Virus genome (UHGV): UHGV-0094592
DNA length: 13,829 nt
DNA from: a virus
Strand: one strand, 5' to 3'
The notes below the pieces were generated by a model. It did no database searches and had not been told where the DNA came from. It worked only from the letters and a program-made list of their open reading frames with translations. Numbering within the stretch: the first letter of the stretch is position 1; each line of letters opens with the position of its first letter. Position numbers and translations under genes: made by a program. Below are positions 1-13,621 of the stretch, piece after piece.

Positions 1-1409
1 CCATGGTCAGAGCCGAAGAACAGGAAGTTTTTACGACCCAGACTGACCGCCCGCAAGGCATTTTCAGCGATGTTGTTGTCGATTTCCACCCAGCCATTAC
101 TGCAGTACACGTTCAGGGCCTTCCACTGTTTCAGTAGGTATGCGAACGCTTTTGCCGTATCCGAGTGACGCGACAGTGTTTTCATCTGTTGCTGTATCCG
201 GTCATACAGTGACTGCATCAGTGGCGCGGCTCTTGCTTTTCTTGCCGCCAGACGCTGTTCTGCTGAACATCCCCGGACTTCTGCCTCGATGGTATACAGT
301 TCACCGATACGCTGCAGGGCTTCCGTGGTGATGTCGGTTGGCACTCTTGCATGCACATCGTGGATTTTTCTCCGGGCATGGGCCATACACGCAGCTTCCG
401 TTATTCTGCCGGATTCGTATAACGCCCGGTAACCACCGTAAGCATCTGCCTGAAGCACACCGCTGTAACCGGCTAGGTGATTCTGTGGATGGATACCTTT
501 CCGGTCCGGGCTGTACGCGAACCAGACCGCCGGGGGCATCTGTGAACCGGCGTTACGGTCATCACGGACATAGACCCACAGCCGGGCAGTTCTTGTTTTA
601 CCACTGCCCGGCTCCTGGACCGGAACGGGGATATCATCCGCATGAACTTTACCGGGCATCAGTACATACTGGCGCAGGACGTCATACAGCGGCTCCAGCA
701 GTTCAGCAACGGCACCGGTCCAGCGACCCAGTGTGGCACGGCTCAGCTCCACGCCCTGACGACGGTATATTTCTGACTGGCGGTATAACGGCAGATGGTC
801 TGCATATTTTCCAGCGACAACATGGGCCAGAAGCCCCGCTCCGGCATAACTGCGTGCAATGGGTTTTGAAGGCACCGGAGCCTGCACGATATGGTCGCAC
901 CGGCAACAGGCCAGTTTCGGACGTTGTGTTTCGATAACCTTAAAGGCGCTGCTGATAAGCTCCAGTTGCTCTGACACATCACATCCCAGAGAACTGAGTT
1001 CGCCACCACAGGCAGGACAGCATTCCTCTTCCGGCCGGATAACCCGGGTTTCTCGGGGAAGTGAGGCCGGTAACGGTTTACGGGCTGAAGACTGGCGCAG
1101 TGCAGATGGCAGTGCCGGGTCATATTGCTCACCCAGCGTTTCCGCCATTTCTTCCTGAAGTGCGCTGATTCGCTCCTGTGCTTCCTGTATCTGTCGTTCG
1201 GTTTTTGCGCGAAGTTTTTCTGAGCTTTTACCGAACTGCATGCGCTGCAGTTTTGCAATCAGCGCCTTCAGCCGGTTGATTTCGGAAGCATAAGCCGCCA
1301 CCCGCAGTGAGAGCAGGCGGTTATATTCGGCCATCTGGCGGATGGTGTCCTGTTGCGTCTGCAACAGCGCCCGCAGGCGGGCATTCTCATGAGCAAGTGA
1401 GGTGTCCAT
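1..1409 (-). CDS. tnpC: IS66-family transposase TnpC (orf3), 5' 469 codons; 3' end lies beyond the left window edge
   Basis: Uninterrupted minus-strand frame from ATG at 1409-1407 to the window edge (codon phase 5..3); absent from the ORF track because there is no in-window stop. Translation starts [25 protein letters not shown] and contains a CPACGG...CCRCDH zinc-finger-like motif and the conserved IS66 transposase core ending ...[13 protein letters not shown] at the edge. RBS GTGAGGA lies just upstream. Confidence 0.9.
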
Positions 1410-1428
1410 ATCCTCACTTTACAACGGG

Positions 1429-1776
1429 TTATATACGGATTCCAGCGCGTTCTGTTCGTTTCGGGTGCTTCCAGTTGATACCTTCAAGAAGCATAGATAA
1501 CTGAGCCGGAGTAAGGTGAACCTTTCCATCGCGGGTGACCGGCCAGACGAAGCGGCCCCGTTCCAGGCGTTTGGTGAAGAGGCACAGTCCGTCGCTGTCA
1601 GCCCACAACACTTTTATCTGGTCACCCCGGCGTCCGCAAAAGATGAACAGATGCCCGGAGAACGGGTCATCCTTCAGGACGTTCTGAACTTTTGATGCCA
1701 GGCCGTTAAAACCATTTCGCATATCGGTAATACCGGCAACCAGCCAGATACGCGAACCGGCAGGGAGAGATATAAT
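1429..1776 (-). CDS. tnpB: IS66-family TnpB (orf2); conserved N-terminus begins at a non-ATG codon
   Basis: ORF track gives 1429..1722 (MRNGFNGLASKVQNVLKDDPFSGHLFIFCGRRGD...), but the same frame continues upstream without a stop as ISLPAGSRIWLVAGITD-MRNGFNGL, matching the IS66 TnpB N-terminus as I recall it. The only codon at the conserved start position is ATT (1776-1774), overlapping the tnpA TGA stop. Confidence 0.75.
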   Translation of the reverse strand: MISLPAGSRIWLVAGITDMRNGFNGLASKVQNVLKDDPFSGHLFIFCGRRGDQIKVLWADSDGLCLFTKRLERGRFVWPVTRDGKVHLTPAQLSMLLEGINWKHPKRTERAGIRI

Positions 1777-2387
1777 CAGTGGCTGCTCCCTTTCATTTCG
1801 CGGATAAGTGTCTGTAATAACGCCGGCGTCAGTTCACCTTTCAGCCTGAGAGTTCCGGCCGGCAGAACCAGCTCACAGCACAGACTGTCGGGCGGTGTAT
1901 TTATCTGCTCAGGTTCCTGTGCGGGTGCCGGGATTTTATTATCCGGCTCCGGCGTTAACGTCACGGGAAGTAGCGATGTTTCATGTTCGCCGGGCGGCTG
2001 CAGGCCGCCGTTACGCCAGAGATGCCGCCAGTTAAAGAGCAGGTTATCGTTGATTCCGTTCTCGCGAGCTATTTGTGCGACACAGGCACCGGGTAAAAGA
2101 GTTTGCTGAACAAGTCTCCATTTAAACTCCTGTGAAAATCGGTTCCGGCGGTTTTTCTCTGTTTTCACAGTCTGAGTTACTGTCGGGGCTGAAGGGTATC
2201 GCCCCGGGAAAAGAGCCCGGGCCAGTTGCATGCAGGAATATTCACCGGAAAGAGGCCAGTCAGCGAATATCTGGTGAAATCGCCTCACCAGAGAAAAAAT
2301 GGCGGTTTTGCTGACACCGGTCTGCGCAGAAATGCGCGGGTACGACAGTGACTCGTCAAATCTCAGTTGTAGCACACGCAGGATCAA
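1776..2387 (-). CDS. tnpA: IS66-family accessory protein TnpA (orf1) with a predicted N-terminal HTH; start codon uncertain (TTG at 2387 or downstream)
   Basis: 203-codon minus ORF directly upstream of tnpB. HTH-like segment ISAQTGVSKTAIFSLVRRF and the conserved IAREN-GINDNLLFNWRHLWRNG motif typical of IS66 orf1. Confidence 0.8.
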   Translation of the reverse strand: MILRVLQLRFDESLSYPRISAQTGVSKTAIFSLVRRFHQIFADWPLSGEYSCMQLARALFPGRYPSAPTVTQTVKTEKNRRNRFSQEFKWRLVQQTLLPGACVAQIARENGINDNLLFNWRHLWRNGGLQPPGEHETSLLPVTLTPEPDNKIPAPAQEPEQINTPPDSLCCELVLPAGTLRLKGELTPALLQTLIREMKGSSH

Positions 2388-2420
2388 TTCCGGATTATCT
2401 GCCAGTACCGCCTTTTGTGC

Positions 2421-2453
2421 GTAAGCGTCAACGGAGCACCGTATTGACGCTTA
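2421..2453. repeat. IS66-type terminal inverted-repeat-like sequence (GTAAGCGTCAA...TTGACGCTTAT), internally palindromic
   Basis: Plus strand reads GTAAGCGTCAACGGAGCACCGTATTGACGCTTAT. IS66-family ends characteristically start GTAAGCG. It sits between the tnpC 3' fragment stop (2451-2453) and the tnpA start. Confidence 0.6.
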
Positions 2454-2636
2454 TTTATTGGTGAGTACTACGTTCCATGGCAGGAGTTCGCCAACTCGGT
2501 TGGAAGGCCATTCCGGCAGTACGCTCAGAATATGGCGCAGATACGCTTCCGGATCGATACCGTTCAGACGGCAGGTGCCGATCAGCCCGTACAGCAGTGC
2601 TCCACGCTCGCCGCCGTGATCGCTACCGAAGAACAC
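2451..2636 (-). pseudogene. Detached 3' fragment of an IS66 transposase (TnpC C-terminal 61 codons)
   Basis: Translation VFFGSDHGGERGALLYGLIGTCRLNGIDPEAYLRHILSVLPEWPSNRVGELLPWNVVLTNK is the C-terminal tail of IS66 TnpC. Its first residues (FFGSDHG) duplicate the last residues of the tnpC copy cut by the window edge. Homology stops abruptly near 2637. Confidence 0.85.
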
Positions 2637-2699
2637 GTAGATGATATGACCTTTATATACTCACTATAGCATTGGTGGGATATTCCAGAGGAGGTCATC

Positions 2700-2954
2700 A
2701 TGCATTCGGAAAATATTGCGGCTTACGTCGGGCTGGATGTGCATAAAGAAACGTTGGCGGTTGCTATTGCTGCACCTGAACGGCTTGGCGAAGTTCGTTA
2801 TTATGGTACGATTAACAACGAAGCCCAGGCTGTACGTCGATTATTTCAGAAATTGCAGGGACTTTACGGAAACATTCTTTCCTGCTATGAGGCTGGCCCC
2901 TGTGGTTTTGGGCTATATCATCAACTCACGATATTTATAATTAAATGCGCATAA
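2700..2954 (+). pseudogene. IS110-family transposase, N-terminal fragment (84 codons, truncated)
   Basis: MHSENIAAYVGLDVHKETLAVAIA...CYEAGPCGFGLYHQL carries the IS110-family N-terminal signatures (GxDxxK and CYEAxG). Strong RBS GGAGG 7 nt upstream. Full-length IS110-family transposases are several-fold longer as far as I recall, and this ORF ends after only 84 codons. Confidence 0.75.
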
Positions 2955-3005
2955 CTTATTGAATTTAACCAACAAACATCGCTGCAAATAACGTTAAAAA
3001 TCGCA

Positions 3006-3030
3006 AATTAACTACACCATTAACTACACC
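3006..3030. repeat. Island-boundary direct repeat, left copy (AATTAACTACACCATTAACTACACC; tandem 12-mer ATTAACTACACC x2); candidate att/arm site
   Basis: Perfect 25/25 identity to 13622-13646; imperfect homology continues about 45 bp to the right of both copies. Confidence 0.75.
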
Positions 3031-3521
3031 GTTCGGTGCACTGTATGCAACAATGCGGAACAAATAGACACAAGCGACGGGCTATACCGTTATCATTTTC
3101 CGGCTATCCGCCATGAAGCTGGTGGATGATCACGGATAAACCGTTATGGAAGTCCCCATATCGGCATCATGCCCACCAGCGAGATTAGTTATCTGGTTGC
3201 TGATGGGAGGCTGACGAACCTCGATGCTAGGGTGCGCAAAACTAGTGAGACCTTTTTTCTCTGCAACAGGCCCATAATTCGCGTTTTCTTTGTCTGCCGT
3301 AAGGTGGGGGATTTTTGGCGGATCCAGCAATGGCGCGGATTTTGTGATTTTTTATAGATAGACCTCATCTATCAATCCCGTGCACACCTTCCCAAAAAAA
3401 GTTTTCGAACCTGCGGCGATGTGAACAAGGGTAGGCGGGCGGTCCCATAAGCAATGAGGTGTAGGGATTTCTATCCCCCTGGGGGTATTAAACACCACCC
3501 GATTTAAATACCGTCTTTTTT

Positions 3522-4472: not shown

Positions 4473-4637
4473 TTAGTTAAGGTTTCAGGTTGGTGTGTTG
4501 GTGTTATCTTTCCCTTTTTATTCATAGAGATAGAGCGAAAAACAAAACCACCACCACCAACCCGAAAAGGCTCATAAATAGCGAAAATCCGCAAGGTCGC
4601 CGCCCCGTAACGGGTCCATATGCCGGAAAGGACCCGT
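4473..4637 (-). other. Lambda-type cos site (cosQ-cosN-cosB) with exact cosN 12-mer GGGCGGCGACCT (minus strand, 4605..4594)
   Basis: Minus strand reads ...TTTACGGGTCCTTTCCGG-CATATGGACCCGTTACG-GGGCGGCGACCT-TGCGGATTTTCGCTATTTATGAGCCTTTTCGGG. Lambda right and left ends read ...TTTACGGGTCCTTTCCGGTGATCCGACAGGTTACG / GGGCGGCGACCTCGCGGGTTTTCGCTATTTATGAAAATTTTCCGG. It lies directly upstream of the Nu1-like gene, as in lambda. Confidence 0.85.
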
Positions 4638-7796: not shown

Positions 7797-7990
7797 CTCC
7801 CCACTTTTACTACCCACTTTTTGAAATTACCCAACGTCTCCCCACTTCTTTTTTTTGTGATTCTAACGTGATGTTTTTCAATGTGTTTTTTATTCCCCAC
7901 TTTTTGGGGTATATACAGGTGGGAAAGTGGGGAATCACGTTTCAATTTTGTTAAATTCCCCACACTCCCCACTTTTACTACCCACTTTTT
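7797..7990. repeat. Putative origin of replication: iteron array (CCCCACTTTT family) flanking an AT-rich core
   Basis: 23-bp direct repeat CTCCCCACTTTTACTACCCACTTTT at 7797-7821 and 7965-7989. Additional TCCCCACTT copies at 7837-7848, 7893-7905, 7957-7966 and an inverted copy at 7924-7934. Located directly 3' of the helicase gene. Confidence 0.7.
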
Positions 7991-9404
7991 ACAGTGGGCG
8001 CACGTCATCACCGTCAATAGCAATAACGCCATCACCTTCCAGCTTGTACAGCCAGCGCCGGAAGTGTTTCATCTCATACCCCAGCTTTTTCATATCATCG
8101 CGCAACAACGGAATAGTGCATTTATCTCCGCGCTGTGTGCGTGAACGGATACAGCCCCATAGCGCGGCATGATTCTCCGTCTTGTTCCCGGCTTCCTCGA
8201 TGCGCTCCAGTTCAACGGGTGGGCGCGGCTTATCCACAACAACCAGCGACGTGATTAACTCCCCGTCAGTGTCGGTAAAAAGCTCCACCACACGTAAATC
8301 GTATGCGGCCTCTTTCAGTTCCTCCGCGTCCTTCATTTTTGTGCAGGAGATAACCAGGGCTTCACTGTCTGCACCTTCACGGCGAATACGGTATTCAGCG
8401 TCCAGAGATGCACGAAATGCACTGGAACCACGCGCCCCCTTTGTTTCATCCTTGCCGGAATGGTGAACCACCAGCACCGTGGCCCCTGTGCGGCGTTTCA
8501 GTTCGTCACATCCACGGATAAACGCCCCCATATCCCGCGCGTCATTTTCATCATTACCGCCAAAGCAACGCGCCAGCGTATCAAGAATAATCATGCGTAC
8601 CGGTTTACCCGTTTCCCGTTCAACCTGGCGGGAAGCGATGACCATTTCATCAACATCAAGCGGGACTGCCGGAAAAATCGGGCGGTTTACCAGGTACAGA
8701 TTTTCCACCCGTTCATCATTAACGATTTCCCATGCCTTGATACGGCGGGGGACACCAATGCCACCTTCACCGACAACATACATCACCGAACCATGCGCCA
8801 CCCTGCGGCCTCCCCAGTGACGGCCAGTGGCAACATGACACGCCCAGGAACACGCGAGGAACGATTTATAGGAACCGCTCGCGCCGTATGTGCTGCACAA
8901 TGAATTAGCCGGAATCACGCCCTTAACGACATAATCAAGCTGTGTGTCGTACCCTGCAGATCCAATGCTCATTGGTAGCGTGGTTTTTCGCTGGCTGTAT
9001 TGCTCGTCAGTAAGTATTTCCCCGCGCTCTGCCTGTTCGCGGATCCGTTGCAGGTAGTCGTGCCAGTTCTCCAGCTTCTGGCTGTGCATTCCATCAGGGT
9101 AATAATTCGCATCCCGTACACCTGCCGCCGCCAGCTTTTGCCCGATAGCATTAATATTTGACGGCTTGATGTGGCCTGCCTTGTACAGCCGGACACAATA
9201 GCGACCATCGTCGATAATTTTCAGGTCTGCCAGTTCGTCAAGCTGGCTGTCTCCCAGCCATACAGGCGGGACGTTATCACCAGCAAGTCGCCCGTCCTGT
9301 TCCTGCCACTGTTTCGCGTGCGCCCAGGCATCACTACCCGCAAAAATAATGACTTCGGTCATTTTGTCGTGTGGCTGTTTTTTTAAGTTCGGTGCCAGTT
9401 TCAT
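7989..9404 (-). CDS. Replication helicase, RepA/AAA_25-like P-loop NTPase with an N-terminal domain of unknown function
   Basis: 471 aa. P-loop-like YGASGSYKSF, Walker B-like RMIILDTLARCFGG and the VLVVHHSGKD motif typical of RepA/AAA_25-type helicases. RBS AGGGG. Start overlaps the upstream stop (ATGA). Confidence 0.8.
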   Translation of the reverse strand: MKLAPNLKKQPHDKMTEVIIFAGSDAWAHAKQWQEQDGRLAGDNVPPVWLGDSQLDELADLKIIDDGRYCVRLYKAGHIKPSNINAIGQKLAAAGVRDANYYPDGMHSQKLENWHDYLQRIREQAERGEILTDEQYSQRKTTLPMSIGSAGYDTQLDYVVKGVIPANSLCSTYGASGSYKSFLACSWACHVATGRHWGGRRVAHGSVMYVVGEGGIGVPRRIKAWEIVNDERVENLYLVNRPIFPAVPLDVDEMVIASRQVERETGKPVRMIILDTLARCFGGNDENDARDMGAFIRGCDELKRRTGATVLVVHHSGKDETKGARGSSAFRASLDAEYRIRREGADSEALVISCTKMKDAEELKEAAYDLRVVELFTDTDGELITSLVVVDKPRPPVELERIEEAGNKTENHAALWGCIRSRTQRGDKCTIPLLRDDMKKLGYEMKHFRRWLYKLEGDGVIAIDGDDVRPL

Positions 9405-10127: not shown

Positions 10128-10356
10128 GGCTCACCACCTCCATATCAGCCATGATAATTTTGCTGGCCTCATTCAGTGCCATATCAGCACTAAGTTGCAT
10201 TACAGCCAGTGAATGAGGAACGAAAGCCCCGGCATATTCTGTTTCACTGGTAGCGTGCTTATGCGCCCTGTCCGCGATAACAGAAATATCAATCAGCGCA
10301 TCAATCAGTGTTTTGATTGCTTCGGCGGCTGCGTCCGGACGGGTGTTATTGCACAT
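10120..10356 (-). CDS. Hypothetical protein (78 aa)
   Basis: RBS GGGGG upstream of ATG 10356; 8-nt overlap with the downstream gene. Confidence 0.55.
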   Translation of the reverse strand: MCNNTRPDAAAEAIKTLIDALIDISVIADRAHKHATSETEYAGAFVPHSLAVMQLSADMALNEASKIIMADMEVVSHE

Positions 10357-10552
10357 GGTGCACCCCCTGACGAATACGGGCGGCGAATACCATCACGCAG
10401 CCAGCCGGTGATTGCTGACGGGCTTCCTGTTCGCTGGTGGCCTCAATGGTAATCACGCGCGGTTGTGCCGTACTCAGGGCGATAAAACGCCAGATGTATT
10501 TATTCAGGTTGTGCGAGTCCCGCCCTTGCGGGTGTATGGTATGATTTCTCAT
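10346..10552 (-). CDS. Hypothetical protein (68 aa), first gene of the replication-module operon (ORF track lists a TTG-start version 10346..10642)
   Basis: ATG at 10552 is preceded by GAGG. The longer version would extend into the operator/promoter region. Confidence 0.5.
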   Translation of the reverse strand: MRNHTIHPQGRDSHNLNKYIWRFIALSTAQPRVITIEATSEQEARQQSPAGCVMVFAARIRQGVHHVQ

Positions 10553-10571
10553 AGCAGCCTCGATAATCTTG

Positions 10572-11762
10572 CTATCGTTGGTGGTTAGACGCCCCGTATG
10601 TGTTTCCGGCACTGCGGGGCGTTGCTCTTTGTATTTCAACAATTCTTTTGGTGTGTTTCATGTTATGAGCGCATGAAACACACGTCAAGGCTTTTTGTAT
10701 TTCTTTTTTTGTGTATACTGAAACACACCGATGATTAGGAGTTTCAGAAATGGCAACGGCTAACAAAAACGCAAAATCACAACTGACAACTGTCAGAGTC
10801 CCACTAGATGTTATGCAAGGGATGGAATCCGTTAAGCTGGACGGCGAAAGCAATGCCGGATTTATCGTAACCGCCATGCGCGGAGAAATAGCCCGCCGCC
10901 AAGCAGAAGGCAGCGGAGAAAATCCCCTTGTGTCGTCACTGGATGCCCTGGCTAAGGTCGAACAAATCGGCATCAAAGCAGCGGAAGAAATCGGGCAGCT
11001 TGTCACCGTTGCACGCGAAGAACTCCAGCGTCGCAAGACCAAAGAACCAGAGTAATCACCATCAGCGCCGTGGTGTAAGGTATTACGGCGCATTGCTATG
11101 CAGGACAACACAATGACCGATAAAGAATTGACCAAAACATTATCACCGGCACGGAAAAGACGGCGCAGAAAGATAGAGCATGAATCAGAAAGATTCGCGC
11201 CATGTGCTTTTGCTCTTGAGAAATTCCTTAAAGAGCACAGGAAAAAGCTCTCGTTGCAAACCTTGGAACGAACCAAATCTGACTGATCACATTGCCCACC
11301 AGCCGCAAATGTGGCATTGTTGGTGATGCTCATGCGTTGGGGATAACGTGTAGCTTGTGTCGAGGGGCCACCGTAGCGGGTGGCCTTTGTTTTGCCTGTT
11401 ATCCGGCAATTGTGGCGCTTCGCCACACGGTTGATATAATCCCACTGCTCAGATTCATTTTTTGCGCAGTAGGTTAATTGTTCACAAAGGCGCTCCGGCA
11501 ACGGGGCGCTTTTTGTTTTTATTAGTTTGTAGAAACCTGACTCAGAGATAATGCTCATATTCTGATTGCCGTCAGGGGTGTAAGTTAAATTTACTCCCTT
11601 TTTATCATCAAACATCTGCAACGCTCTGGCGTTAACAATATTGGTTTCACTCCCGCCAGTAAGGCCGGAAATAACCGGAATAATTTCGGCAAAATTTTGC
11701 AGATTCTGTTTTTCAGGACGAACGAAGCCCCGCCCTTGTTCGGGAGAATATCCAGTATTCAT
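10572..11762 (-). CDS. Long open frame; only the N-terminal ~100 codons (from ATG 11762) look protein-like, with a possible Bro-N/KilA-N-like motif. The rest is probably non-coding or a pseudogene remnant
   Basis: N-terminus contains IISESGFYKLIKTKS, resembling a Bro-N-type motif as I recall it. The C-terminal two thirds are Ser/Cys/Arg-rich and antisense to two plus-strand ORFs with good RBSs, and span two plus-oriented terminators. Confidence 0.3.
   Translation of the reverse strand: MNTGYSPEQGRGFVRPEKQNLQNFAEIIPVISGLTGGSETNIVNARALQMFDDKKGVNLTYTPDGNQNMSIISESGFYKLIKTKSAPLPERLCEQLTYCAKNESEQWDYINRVAKRHNCRITGKTKATRYGGPSTQATRYPQRMSITNNATFAAGGQCDQSDLVRSKVCNESFFLCSLRNFSRAKAHGANLSDSCSIFLRRLFRAGDNVLVNSLSVIVLSCIAMRRNTLHHGADGDYSGSLVLRRWSSSRATVTSCPISSAALMPICSTLARASSDDTRGFSPLPSAWRRAISPRMAVTINPALLSPSSLTDSIPCITSSGTLTVVSCDFAFLLAVAISETPNHRCVSVYTKKEIQKALTCVSCAHNMKHTKRIVEIQRATPRSAGNTYGASNHQR
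10651..10688 (-). promoter_or_regulatory. Sigma70-like promoter for the minus-strand operon (TTGACG-17-TAACAT) fully overlapped by a 12-bp inverted-repeat operator
   Basis: Minus strand -35 TTGACG (10688..10683) and -10 TAACAT (10665..10660). Operator GTGTGTTTCATG-9bp-CATGAAACACAC spans 10651-10683. Related GAAACACA sites lie at 10720-10728 and in the hairpin loop at 10596-10627. Confidence 0.6.
10750..11055 (+). CDS. Hypothetical regulator-like protein (101 aa), divergently transcribed from the island operons; candidate repressor
   Basis: Strong RBS TAGGAG 8 nt upstream. Plausible -10 TATACT (10714-10719) with an operator half-site at the predicted start. Balanced composition; N-terminal beta-strand plus helix pattern (TTVRVPLDVMQGMESVKL) reminiscent of ribbon-helix-helix proteins. 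Confidence 0.6.
   Translation: MATANKNAKSQLTTVRVPLDVMQGMESVKLDGESNAGFIVTAMRGEIARRQAEGSGENPLVSSLDALAKVEQIGIKAAEEIGQLVTVAREELQRRKTKEPE
11113..11286 (+). CDS. Hypothetical small basic protein (57 aa; ORF track lists 11098..11286)
   Basis: ATG at 11113 has AGGA 7 nt upstream; very basic (RKRRRRK) N-terminal segment. Confidence 0.45.
   Translation: MTDKELTKTLSPARKRRRRKIEHESERFAPCAFALEKFLKEHRKKLSLQTLERTKSD
11366..11393 (+). terminator. Rho-independent terminator (stem GGCCACC/GGTGGCC, then TTTGTTTT) for the plus-strand unit
   Basis: Perfect 7-bp stem with 6-nt loop and a T-rich tail on the plus strand. Confidence 0.6.
11490..11520 (+). terminator. Second plus-strand rho-independent terminator (stem GCGCTCCG/CGGGGCGC, GCAA tetraloop, TTTTTGTTTTT)
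   Basis: 8-bp stem with one G-U pair, GNRA-type loop, and 11-nt T-rich tail. Confidence 0.65.
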
Positions 11763-11814
11763 GGTTAGATCTCTGTATTAGTGGATGGGTGGCGGCTGTG
11801 TGCCGCCAGCCTGA

Positions 11815-12003
11815 TTAGTGAACTGCCTCGCAGCTTTCCTTCCATGCCAGAACTTCGGATAAAGACCAGCCAACGGAACGACCGCCGAGCTTACGCCGTG
11901 ATGGGAATTGTCCGGTTTTTTCCAGGCGGTACCGACATGAACGGCTCAGGCCTGTAAGTTGCTGACATTCTTTTTCACGTATAAAGCGATCTGTGCTTAA
12001 CAC
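11815..12003 (-). CDS. alpA: AlpA-family (prophage CP4-57-type) transcriptional regulator, 62 aa from GTG start
   Basis: Motif ...CQQLTGLSRSCRYRLEKTGQFPSRRKLGGRSVGWSLSEVLAWKESC is the AlpA/Vis-type HTH signature. GTG at 12003 is preceded by AGGGGGA. ORF track lists a longer 11815..12171 version. Confidence 0.8.
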   Translation of the reverse strand: MLSTDRFIREKECQQLTGLSRSCRYRLEKTGQFPSRRKLGGRSVGWSLSEVLAWKESCEAVH

Positions 12004-12288: not shown

Positions 12289-12346
12289 TTTGTTCCAGAT
12301 TGTTCGCCGTTGTTCGTCGTGGTGTCTCGTTGTTTCACGTTGTGTC
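12289..12346. promoter_or_regulatory. Cluster of TTGTTCG-like direct repeats between int and alpA; candidate regulator binding sites
   Basis: TGTTCC 12291, TTGTTCG 12300, TTGTTCG 12310 (10-bp spacing), TTGTTTC 12330, TTGTGTC 12340. Confidence 0.4.
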
Positions 12347-12370: not shown

Positions 12371-13621
12371 TTATATTTCTCTGGCTATTGGCAGTGTGGT
12401 TACGTTTTTGTGAGTACCCGCCAGTATCTCTAACCGCTCTGTCCACATGTCCAGCGCATTACGTTTCGCATCGAGATAACGGGAGTGGTTATAGACTCGC
12501 TGCATCCCTGGCATCTGGTGAGCGGTGAGTTGTTCGACAATATGCGGATCCACGCCTAAATCGTTCAGCATCGTGGTAAACGTGCGCCGTATATCGTGTA
12601 GTGACCAGTGCGGATGGTTTAATTTTTTGTGCATGAATCTGCCGTATTGCGACACACTGGCTTCCTGTTTCAGTTCCCCGAGTAATAGCCCTGTGTGTCT
12701 GTTCTGCTCCACCAGCTGCGTGACGAACGGTAAAATGCTTTCCGGTATTGGCCTGAATATGGCGACCTTCGTTTTGCTGTGCTCTTTCGGTACTGTCCAG
12801 AGCATTTCCTTAAAATCCCACTCCCTGATCTCCGATAATCTCAGTTCTCCGGTTCGGCAGCCGAACACAATCAGGAGGCGGATTAGTGCGCTGTAGTAGG
12901 GCGGGAATATTTTTTTATCCAGCGCCTGTAATAATTCGCCAAGTTCTTTGTTGCTCAGCACGCGTTCGCTTATGCCTGGTTTTTTGCCAACGTCCACCAC
13001 GTTAAGATCATCCAGAACGTTACTGACTGCGTAGCGACGTTTACGGCAGAACTTAAGCGCCTGTTTACACGCCTGCATCATGTGACCAGACGTTACAGGG
13101 GATTTTTTGCGTATCCGGTCAAAACAGGCCAGCCAGTGACGTAACTCGCATTTATCCAGTGGCATATTGCCAATATGCTGTATGACGTGATTATTCAGGC
13201 GGCTTTTCAGGCATACGTAATCGACACGGTTTTCCTTTACGTGCATTTCCAGCCAGTAGCTGATCGCATCACCCACCGTTACCGGCTTTAGTGCTTCCTG
13301 TATGGAGTAATTAAGCTCATGGCGTGGATTTTTTCCTTCTGCCAGCCATGCGCGACACTGTGCCGCTTTTTCCCTGGCTGCTTTCAGGCTCAGATCAGGA
13401 TAATTTCCCAGCTTCAGGCGTTCCGGTGATACCTGGCGTCCAGCTCCTGCTCTGTAGGTGAAATACCAGGTTAATAAGCCGCTGGTGGAATGCCTGACGC
13501 TCAGGTTTCCACCGTCATTAAGAAATGTGGTTTTTGGGGCTGGTGTGCCGTTGATTTTTCTTAGCTGTGTATCGCTCAGTTTGTTAAGTGCTCTGCTCAT
13601 AATTTTGAATCCGGTCATCAC
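12371..13621 (-). CDS. int: Tyrosine recombinase / integrase, P4-type
   Basis: 416-codon ORF. N-terminal region LSDTQLRKI...YPDLSLKAAREKAAQ resembles P4-family integrase N-termini. C-terminal catalytic motifs include HDIRRTF (HxxR) and a tyrosine within RVYNHSRYLD. ORF-track start is GTG 13621; in-frame ATGs at 13618 and 13600 are alternative starts. Confidence 0.9.
   Translation of the reverse strand: MMTGFKIMSRALNKLSDTQLRKINGTPAPKTTFLNDGGNLSVRHSTSGLLTWYFTYRAGAGRQVSPERLKLGNYPDLSLKAAREKAAQCRAWLAEGKNPRHELNYSIQEALKPVTVGDAISYWLEMHVKENRVDYVCLKSRLNNHVIQHIGNMPLDKCELRHWLACFDRIRKKSPVTSGHMMQACKQALKFCRKRRYAVSNVLDDLNVVDVGKKPGISERVLSNKELGELLQALDKKIFPPYYSALIRLLIVFGCRTGELRLSEIREWDFKEMLWTVPKEHSKTKVAIFRPIPESILPFVTQLVEQNRHTGLLLGELKQEASVSQYGRFMHKKLNHPHWSLHDIRRTFTTMLNDLGVDPHIVEQLTAHQMPGMQRVYNHSRYLDAKRNALDMWTERLEILAGTHKNVTTLPIAREI

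Follow-up and report, generated by a model that had tools for sequence, protein, structure and literature searches.

We report that a 13,829-nucleotide stretch of the UHGV virus genome UHGV-0094592 (the window, always taken at its full length) carries four short repeats laid over two divergent promoters, and we consider it probable that these repeats are the operators of an autoregulated and hitherto uncharacterised ribbon-helix-helix repressor, the 101-amino-acid (101-aa) YlcI/YnfO protein encoded on the plus strand at 10750-11055. By its sequence the window is an EcCICFT073-type phage-inducible chromosomal island (PICI) of E. coli, and for Gram-negative PICIs the existence of a repressor has been described as unclear (PMC6092414). 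A first-pass annotation of the same DNA had proposed a repressor-controlled switch in front of the replication module; comparison between islands gives that proposal strong support and makes the 101-aa protein the best candidate for the repressor. The control region is not simply intergenic, being crossed by a minus-strand open reading frame (ORF) of 396 codons (10572-11762).

The leftward promoter, P_L, lies on the minus strand at 10660-10688, with a -35 element TTGACG (10688-10683), a 17-nt spacer and a -10 element TAACAT (10665-10660). It had been claimed before and was recovered by a promoter scan with a score of 9/12, as one of only two promoter-like sites between 10000 and 11400; the same site is present in two related loci, L002 and L014. 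P_L would drive the icd-like gene together with the replication and late genes. The rightward promoter of the repressor gene, P_R, is called from a consensus match only, the -10 hexamer TATACT at 10714-10719 on the plus strand. Placing each start 7 nt after its -10 element, by consensus, would put transcription starts near 10653 for P_L and near 10726 for P_R. Around these elements a repeat finder gives a perfect 12-bp inverted repeat, GTGTGTTTCATG (10651-10662), 9 nt and CATGAAACACAC (10672-10683), whose arms contain O1 (GTGTGTTTCA, 10651-10660, covering about +3 to -7 of P_L) and O2 (TGAAACACAC, 10674-10683, covering about -21 to -30). A third exact copy, O3 (TGAAACACAC, 10719-10728), covers about -7 to +3 of P_R, and both the inverted repeat and this extra half-site agree with the first-pass annotation, which had overlooked a conserved degenerate copy, O3' (TTGTATTTCT, 10695-10704, 7/10 matches), over about -31 to -22 of P_R. 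The promoter had also been described as exactly covered by the repeat: this holds for the start site, part of the -10 element and the spacer, whereas the -35 element is only abutted, with an overlap of 1 nt. Exactly three copies of TGAAACACAC occur in the 13.8 kb, all within 78 bp (starting at 10651 on the minus strand and at 10674 and 10719 on the plus strand). By simple arithmetic, 13.8 kb should contain about 0.02 perfect inverted repeats of 12 bp whose arms are no more than 20 nt apart, and a given 10-mer would recur exactly twice more within 200 bp with a probability of about 1e-7, which places the observed pattern well outside what chance would produce. The layout is mirror-symmetric about 10689, with two perfect sites at P_L and one perfect plus one degenerate site at P_R, a geometry that suggests tight repression of the operon and looser autoregulation.

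The evidence that carries our reading is comparative. A search with the 101-aa protein gave 216 relatives with a conserved C-terminal two thirds and a mosaic segment at residues 2-32, and we compared 22 loci, 21 of them fetched and the other EcCICFT073, from E. coli, Yersinia, Serratia, Enterobacter, Erwinia, Xenorhabdus and Photorhabdus, a sample that is a small part of the family. In all 22 the repeat motif stands at the same four positions, at about -7 to +3 and -21 to -31 of each promoter, and it changes jointly at all four sites between 11 types, each of which has its own N-terminal arm and strand in the protein. Type A, whose motif GTGTGTTTCA is that of the window, has SQLTTVRVP at strand residues 10-18, and type A2 has SQLFTVRVP with the same motif; type A' combines SQMTT[LI]RVP and an N-terminal arm MSVYK with GTGA(G)ATATAC, type B SQSLTARIP with GTGTAAG, type C SKQISIRIP with GTGTGATT, and type D SQMKNIRFP with GTGTGC(A)TACA. 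Types E and E2 pair SQQLNARFP with TGGTATTCA and SQQINARFP with TGGGATTCA, types F and F' pair SQ[LV]KN[IV]RIP with GTGTGTATTTA and SQIKNVRVP with GTGTG[CT]ATTCA, and type G, found in EcCICFT073 with a short 59-aa form of the protein, pairs SQALKARVP with GTGTGGCCCAC. While the operators vary, the CTTGAC and TAnnnT that flank them at P_L are kept in all aligned loci, and the -10 position of P_R reads TATAAT, TATACT, TATATT or another TAnnnT in all loci. Within type A (seven loci from three genera, E. coli, Xenorhabdus and Photorhabdus) identity is 0.97 at O1, 0.89 at O2 and 0.97 at O3, and only 0.61 in the 9-nt spacer adjacent to O1; between types it is 0.52-0.66 for the operators (O2 0.52, O3 0.55) and 0.68-0.75 for the promoter hexamers. 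The O3' position holds a copy of the type-specific motif in all types. In types A, A2, B, C, E and E2 the pair O1/O2 forms an inverted repeat and in types D, F, F' and G a direct one, and this variation in orientation argues that they are protein sites rather than the arms of a hairpin.

The protein itself fits the proposed role. RefSeq names it YlcI/YnfO family protein, and residues 9-50 match the 42-residue N-terminal model NCBIfam NF041551 with 63.2 bits against a cut-off of 30 (E 1.6e-17). In the AlphaFold monomer (predicted local distance difference test score, pLDDT, 81) an extended segment made up of an N-terminal arm and strand (residues 1-18) is followed by helices at 19-28 and 35-53 and by a long C-terminal helix at 59-97; a beta-strand and then two helices within about 45 residues is the ribbon-helix-helix layout, and the model thus predicts this fold with confidence. 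The invariant R16-x-P18 followed by [DE]-V mirrors the strand of Arc and Mnt, and a full-length search also matched ribbon-helix-helix domains of the CopG family, of PutA and of antitoxins. Profile methods were less forthcoming. No curated ribbon-helix-helix family in Pfam passes its threshold, the best being PSK_trans_fac (Rv0623-like; E 0.02, 16.2 bits against 28.3), which we take to be a ribbon-helix-helix antitoxin family; hhalign gave probabilities of 8.6% to Arc and 0.9% to Mnt, and a profile search against PDB sequences returned no ribbon-helix-helix match and only a weak one to Hef. As a separate observation, residues 45-86 (10882-11007; SLDALAKVEQIGIKAAEEI, with I73-G74 invariant) resemble the helix-hairpin-helix of Hef/XPF (E 0.005); they form one long helix in the AlphaFold model, and the natural 59-aa form in EcCICFT073 is without this conserved C-terminal part.

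That the repressor gene is real has to be argued, given the long frame on the other strand. The plus-strand ORF has a conserved Shine-Dalgarno sequence (AGGAG at 10737-10741 in the window), ATG and length, and gene callers choose it in every locus. Differences between loci fall at codon positions 1, 2 and 3 of the plus frame in the numbers 1840, 1484 and 4530, and replacements average +0.14 on the BLOSUM62 scale in this frame versus -0.97 in the antisense frame, a pattern that favours the plus frame as the one under protein-level selection. The minus-strand ORF, which we call eta-like after its likeness to eta of P4, starts 52 nt after alpA and runs antisense through a 62-aa ORF, the repressor gene and all four operators. 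It shows homology only in its first approximately 90 residues, as weak Bro-N/Ant matches, and its translation opposite the repressor is rich in Ser, Cys and Arg and without homology; its amino-acid changes are non-conservative, and where the two frames overlap on opposite strands their third codon positions coincide. Nevertheless, over the 180 nt 5' of the repressor ATG the eta-like frame has 0-1 stops in 15 of 17 loci, against 2-9 in each of the other two minus frames, and shuffles give such an open frame a chance of 2-9% per locus. The sequence comparison indicates a frame that is kept open but not kept constant. It continues into the icd-like gene in most loci and in EcCICFT073, while a stop separates the two in L002, L003 and the window, here a TAG 20 nt before the icd-like ATG. 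In the type-D loci L018 and L019 the Icd-like domain makes up the N-terminal end of a Phage_ASH-family protein (2037-2810), and the open minus frame there extends over 635 codons, beginning just after alpA and ending with the Phage_ASH-family gene, the closest match we have seen to the eta/kil nesting of P4. No sequence homology of the eta/kil-like region to P4 was found by tblastn against 50,697 phage records, in which the Icd-like protein had one match, in a 16.5-kb "induced prophage".

Several other explanations of the repeats deserve consideration. AlpA is a known activator of Gram-negative PICI genes and of its own promoter and is needed for induction (PMC6092414; 10.1101/2022.09.08.507074), and it is encoded about 1.1 kb from the repeats, so one could suppose that the repeats are AlpA sites from which AlpA activates the operon promoter directly, the 101-aa protein being unrelated; the first-pass annotation had also named AlpA, with the 101-aa protein, as a factor to be tried in reporter assays. 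Motif and AlpA vary independently: the AlpA proteins of L018 (type D) and L014 (type B) are 95% and 92% identical to that of the window, yet these loci have different motifs, and the type-A loci of Xenorhabdus and Photorhabdus share the motif of the window with an AlpA that is only 34-40% identical or undetected. Moreover, the -35 and -10 elements of P_L are near consensus, with no need of an activator, and sites over a start and a spacer are where repressors sit, and we consider direct activation by AlpA quite unlikely. The spacing of the sites, whose centres lie 22, 23, 21 and 24 bp apart (two helical turns), also resembles that of iteron arrays, and the region heads the replication module, as it would if the repeats were iterons or an origin element bound by the initiator of the island. 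Of the explanations considered this seems to us the least probable: L014 and L015 share the same operators but have different Icd-like proteins, replicases (RepA/AAA_25 helicase versus D5_N primase) and eta N-termini, L025 (type A') and L020 (type E) conversely have a common DUF927 replicase and different motifs, the sites fall exactly on promoter elements, in a mirror-symmetric layout, and the origin has been mapped downstream of the primase/rep gene in these islands (PMC6092414; PMC10111431). Taken together, these swaps indicate that the motif follows the N-terminal segment of the 101-aa protein and not AlpA, the Icd-like protein, the replicase, the N-terminus of the long ORF or the 62-aa ORF. 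The last of these (11098-11286, plus strand; phrog_21027, E 2e-14), whose product is very basic, lies 3' of the repressor gene and is probably co-transcribed with it; a homologue is annotated in EcCICFT073, but none is called in L015 or L020, which share their operator types with L014 and L021, and it is outside the conserved core.

Two further possibilities were weighed. Induction is specific to the helper phage, the phage inducer is unidentified (PMC6092414), and many motif types could mirror many helpers, as expected if a helper-phage factor rather than an island protein bound the sites to give helper-specific induction. That would leave the match between motif and N-terminal segment in 22 of 22 loci unexplained, as well as the presence of the same sites at the protein's own promoter, which is the geometry of autoregulation, and tblastn against the 50,697 phage records found no homologue of the 101-aa protein and so no evident phage mimic of like specificity; we regard this possibility as very unlikely. 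The remaining alternative is that only the long minus-strand ORF is real, the 101-aa frame being its shadow and the repeats features of the coding sequence or messenger, such as a 12-bp stem that modulates translation or RNase III cleavage. The inverted repeat could indeed form such a stem in the window, the minus frame is conserved open across the region, and the islands have been described as essentially unidirectional (PMC10111431). Against this stand the substitution pattern and the conservative replacements of the plus frame, its conserved signals and length, its consistent choice by gene callers, its passing of a family model and its confident ribbon-helix-helix model, together with the lack of homology in the Ser/Cys/Arg-rich minus-strand translation and the direct orientation of O1 and O2 in types D, F, F' and G, which means that no stem is conserved. 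We think a shadow ORF improbable, if a little less so than the other alternatives.

A number of observations nevertheless speak against the repressor reading. The published model of these islands has AlpA as activator and no repressor (PMC6092414). P_R has a good -10 element without a recognisable -35, and in the type-F loci L007 and L011 the minus-strand frame is not open. The N-terminus of the 101-aa protein physically adjoins the operators, such that one recombination block could yield part of the association, and co-inheritance of adjacent segments does inflate it; linkage alone is an insufficient explanation, given that four separate sites change together. Finally, types A and A' differ in about eight N-terminal residues and have quite different motifs, and specificity is set either by very few residues or by some other determinant. 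Knight and Sauer are said to have found in 1989 that the specificity of Arc and Mnt resides in a few N-terminal residues, which would fit the pattern seen here, including the small difference between A and A'.

Downstream of P_L, opposite the leader of the icd-like gene, lies a conserved hairpin that the first-pass annotation had taken for a leader hairpin, at 10596-10627, with a further half-site in its loop. The hairpin exists, with its stem at 10588-10623 and a U-rich tail to about 10638, and its pairs are kept on the plus strand only. The loop half-site, ATGTGTTTC at 10598-10606, did not hold up: it matches 8 of 10 positions, a match expected by chance in the leader with a probability of about 8% (simple arithmetic), it is unconserved, and in the other operator types no full copy of their own motif occurs in the loop. 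One more degenerate copy, at 10629-10638 within the U-rich terminator tail, is likewise unconserved and was rejected as an operator. The plus-strand fold is the more stable in 16 of 17 loci, by 1.3-13.8 kcal/mol (by at least 5 in 11), because the wobble positions can pair as G-U on the plus strand alone. RNAalifold gives 13 pairs, -20.6 kcal/mol, four compensatory pairs and many G-U pairs for the plus strand, against 7 pairs and -7.6 kcal/mol for the minus strand, and in the window the fold z scores are -3.3 for the plus strand and -1.9 for the minus-strand leader. Since pairing is kept on the plus strand only and is followed by a U-rich tail, the hairpin has the look of a terminator, at the end of a plus-strand RNA complementary to the icd-like leader. 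Such a candidate RNA would be about 85 nt long and would cover the icd-like start codon, Shine-Dalgarno sequence and leader. No plus-strand promoter came out of a stringent scan of the region 5' of the hairpin, and only a relaxed search for extended -10 elements gave a candidate, TGgTATGAT at 10536-10544 (plus strand), with a start that would fall near 10551. A TAnnnT hexamer is present 36-37 nt 5' of an invariant GGTTAGA in 18 of 18 loci (L015 has TGGTATAAT), and the promoter call is weak, for the hexamer overlaps conserved His-Thr codons of the icd-like gene. An Rfam scan of the whole window with E up to 1 found no C4, isrK or other family in the region. We also note, from the alignment, a 4-5-bp stem adjoining the icd-like Shine-Dalgarno sequence (10561-10579 and its counterparts in relatives), with compensatory changes between loci (CGATA/TATCG, CGTTA/TAACG, TGTAA/TTACA and ATTA/TAAT). 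The D-arm- and anticodon-stem-like look of GGTGGTTAGA and a stem led us to run ARAGORN, which found no tRNA or tmRNA.

Returning to the repressor, we propose that it holds the replication operon of the island off. Dimers, probably bridged by the long C-terminal helix, would occupy both perfect sites at P_L and shut this promoter, while the perfect and degenerate pair at P_R would be bound less tightly, such that the repressor limits its own synthesis. Specificity would reside in the first approximately 19 residues and would have diversified into many types. A second tier can be envisaged by analogy with P4, in which the helper phage turns on alpA and transcription from the alpA promoter crosses the translated eta-like ORF, which lies opposite the repressor gene, and continues into the operon, thereby overriding the repressor. 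In EcCICFT073 the expression of ORF3, downstream of alpA, needs AlpA (PMC6092414), and it is this dependence, together with the likeness to P4 eta, that leads us to propose the override. A second brake on the icd-like gene may come from the short antisense RNA of the plus strand, with its end at the 10588-10623 hairpin. Extending this, it is tempting to speculate that E. coli-type PICIs including EcCICFT073 are silenced by a hypervariable repressor whose at least 11 types amount to immunity or incompatibility groups, that the eta-like ORF exists mainly to be translated, with AlpA-driven transcription and translation silencing the repressor by convergent transcription and carrying polymerase into the operon, and that the cis-antisense RNA is a third lock. 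We hold this wider scheme only tentatively, and would put it at rather less than an even chance.

Parts of this arrangement have precedents. In the immI region of P22, the ribbon-helix-helix repressors Mnt and Arc act at the operators Omnt and Oarc at the promoters Pant and Pmnt. The resemblance includes a small ribbon-helix-helix repressor with an R-x-P strand motif, an operator overlapping a strong promoter that faces an operon of early or antirepressor-type genes, a repressor gene transcribed oppositely from an adjacent weak promoter and, as in Mnt, an extra helical portion at the C-terminus with the potential to form tetramers. The differences are that there is no detectable sequence homology to Arc or Mnt, that half-sites here are 23 bp apart rather than about 11 bp, that four mirror-symmetric sites over two promoters vary in orientation by type, and that the gene lies antisense inside a long ORF, in a satellite rather than a phage. 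Omega of pSM19035 is a ribbon-helix-helix regulator of repeat arrays built from contiguous 7-bp heptads; it acts as a dimer on short asymmetric repeats in direct or inverted orientation, as we propose for the 101-aa protein, but here the sites are 10 bp long and about 22 bp apart. Cis-antisense RNAs lie over toxic small genes (SymR/SymE type), and the C4 RNA of P1 acts on icd. The candidate RNA in the window would similarly be short, lie opposite the translation start of a gene like a cell-division inhibitor and have its terminator in the leader, yet it is a candidate with a weak promoter call that overlaps coding sequence, and it matches no Rfam family.

A parallel in layout is P4, in which, according to the summary in PMC10111431, eta follows the alpA homologue, holds the constitutive promoter PLE and carries kil in frame within it, and its translation is required for read-through by late transcription. 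Here too a long ORF directly follows the alpA/vis homologue, a small gene of cell-division-inhibitor type is nested in frame at its end in most relatives, a near-consensus promoter inside the ORF faces a primase/replication operon, such that P_L would be the counterpart of PLE and icd-like that of kil, and the ORF is kept open, as expected if translation prevents termination. P4 immunity, in contrast, is due to the CI RNA from the same strand, whereas we propose a protein from the opposite strand; there is no C4/isrK match here in Rfam (E up to 1), the conserved hairpin is on the plus (antisense) strand, and the eta-like frame of the window is cut by its TAG before the icd-like ATG. The master repressor Stl(Rpr) of SaPIs and Gram-positive PICIs, paired with Str (PMC6092414), is likewise divergent from an excision and replication operon with the control region between. 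Stl differs in being a helix-turn-helix protein inactivated by a helper-phage protein, against a predicted ribbon-helix-helix fold and a known induction route through helper-activated AlpA here, and in the window the repressor gene sits between alpA and the operon on the strand opposite to everything else. Immunity was attributed in later work to Bro-zone RNAs (PMC10111431). Repressor/operator switches of the ribbon-helix-helix kind and nested genes in the style of P4 are each known, and their combination in Gram-negative PICIs appears undescribed; in a limited literature search no connection of PICIs with a ribbon-helix-helix protein or with YlcI/YnfO came to light.

As to the island as a whole, its annotation combines the RefSeq record of E. 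coli "clone D i14" with scans against Pfam, NCBIfam and PHROG. The 801 bp tested, spanning the icd-like gene, control region and repressor gene, are 100% identical to that strain and to many others, and some part of the query is matched in 1436 of 5426 complete E. coli genomes. On the minus strand lie the integrase gene int (12371-13621; RefSeq and domain scans), alpA (11815-12003; RefSeq and Pfam PF05930, E 1e-17; the activator role is that given in PMC6092414) and, after a stretch without RefSeq annotation between AlpA and the 101-aa gene and a gap of 197 bp beyond the latter, icd-like (10346-10552; 68 aa; RefSeq and NCBIfam NF033153, 69.8 bits), the first gene of the leftward replication operon. 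Small ORFs and DUF4222 follow, then a RepA-type helicase (7989-9404, minus strand), SSB, major-capsid-like, decoration and small-terminase-like (TerS-like) genes and insertion sequence (IS) debris. On the plus strand, a terminator-like hairpin with a T tail at 11363-11388 (10 pairs, 6 of them G-C, followed by TTTGTTTTG in a terminator scan) would end the repressor operon. The gene order, including the YlcI/YnfO gene facing the Icd-like gene, is that of the prototype Gram-negative PICI EcCICFT073, and the sequence thus shows what is expected of such islands, with int, alpA and a replication gene in one direction and then a few captured late genes. We considered a capsid-forming PICI (cf-PICI), but only the major-capsid-like, decoration and small-terminase-like genes are annotated rather than the full capsid and packaging set, and the layout equals that of the classical EcCICFT073.

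Elsewhere in the window, positions 1-3500, left of the island, hold a CbtA/YeeU toxin-antitoxin pair and fragments of IS630, IS66 and IS110, and insertions may have eroded the left end. Between the small-terminase-like gene and the next late gene is a long near-perfect hairpin (4482-4568; -38.5 kcal/mol, z -6.0, with no shuffle folding as well), the site of the sole Rfam match of the window scan, a spurious mir-3910, and it could be a bidirectional terminator or an island site related to packaging. Three direct repeats of the TTGTTCG type lie between int and alpA (12300-12343, starting at 12300, 12310 and 12330), one and two helical turns apart, and could be recognised by AlpA/excisionase or serve as arm-type sites of the integrase. 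The interval from the alpA stop to the start of the long ORF holds a G+C-rich stem-loop, GGCGGC-5 nt-GCCGCC (11775-11812), with no T tail on either strand.

Having a specific candidate repressor, four operators and both promoters to propose for islands without an identified repressor, we can ask how these islands remain quiescent, and the presence of the same module in the experimental model EcCICFT073 opens both quiescence and its override by AlpA to direct testing. The region also illustrates an annotation problem, in that a genuine small gene here lies opposite a long ORF whose open frame is itself conserved. The at least 11 matched protein and operator types form a natural data set on ribbon-helix-helix specificity and are a possible source of orthogonal repressor/operator pairs. 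If the wider scheme is true, the module would amount to the immunity circuit of P4 re-invented with a protein from the opposite strand, and Gram-negative PICIs would have their missing repressor in the 101-aa protein.

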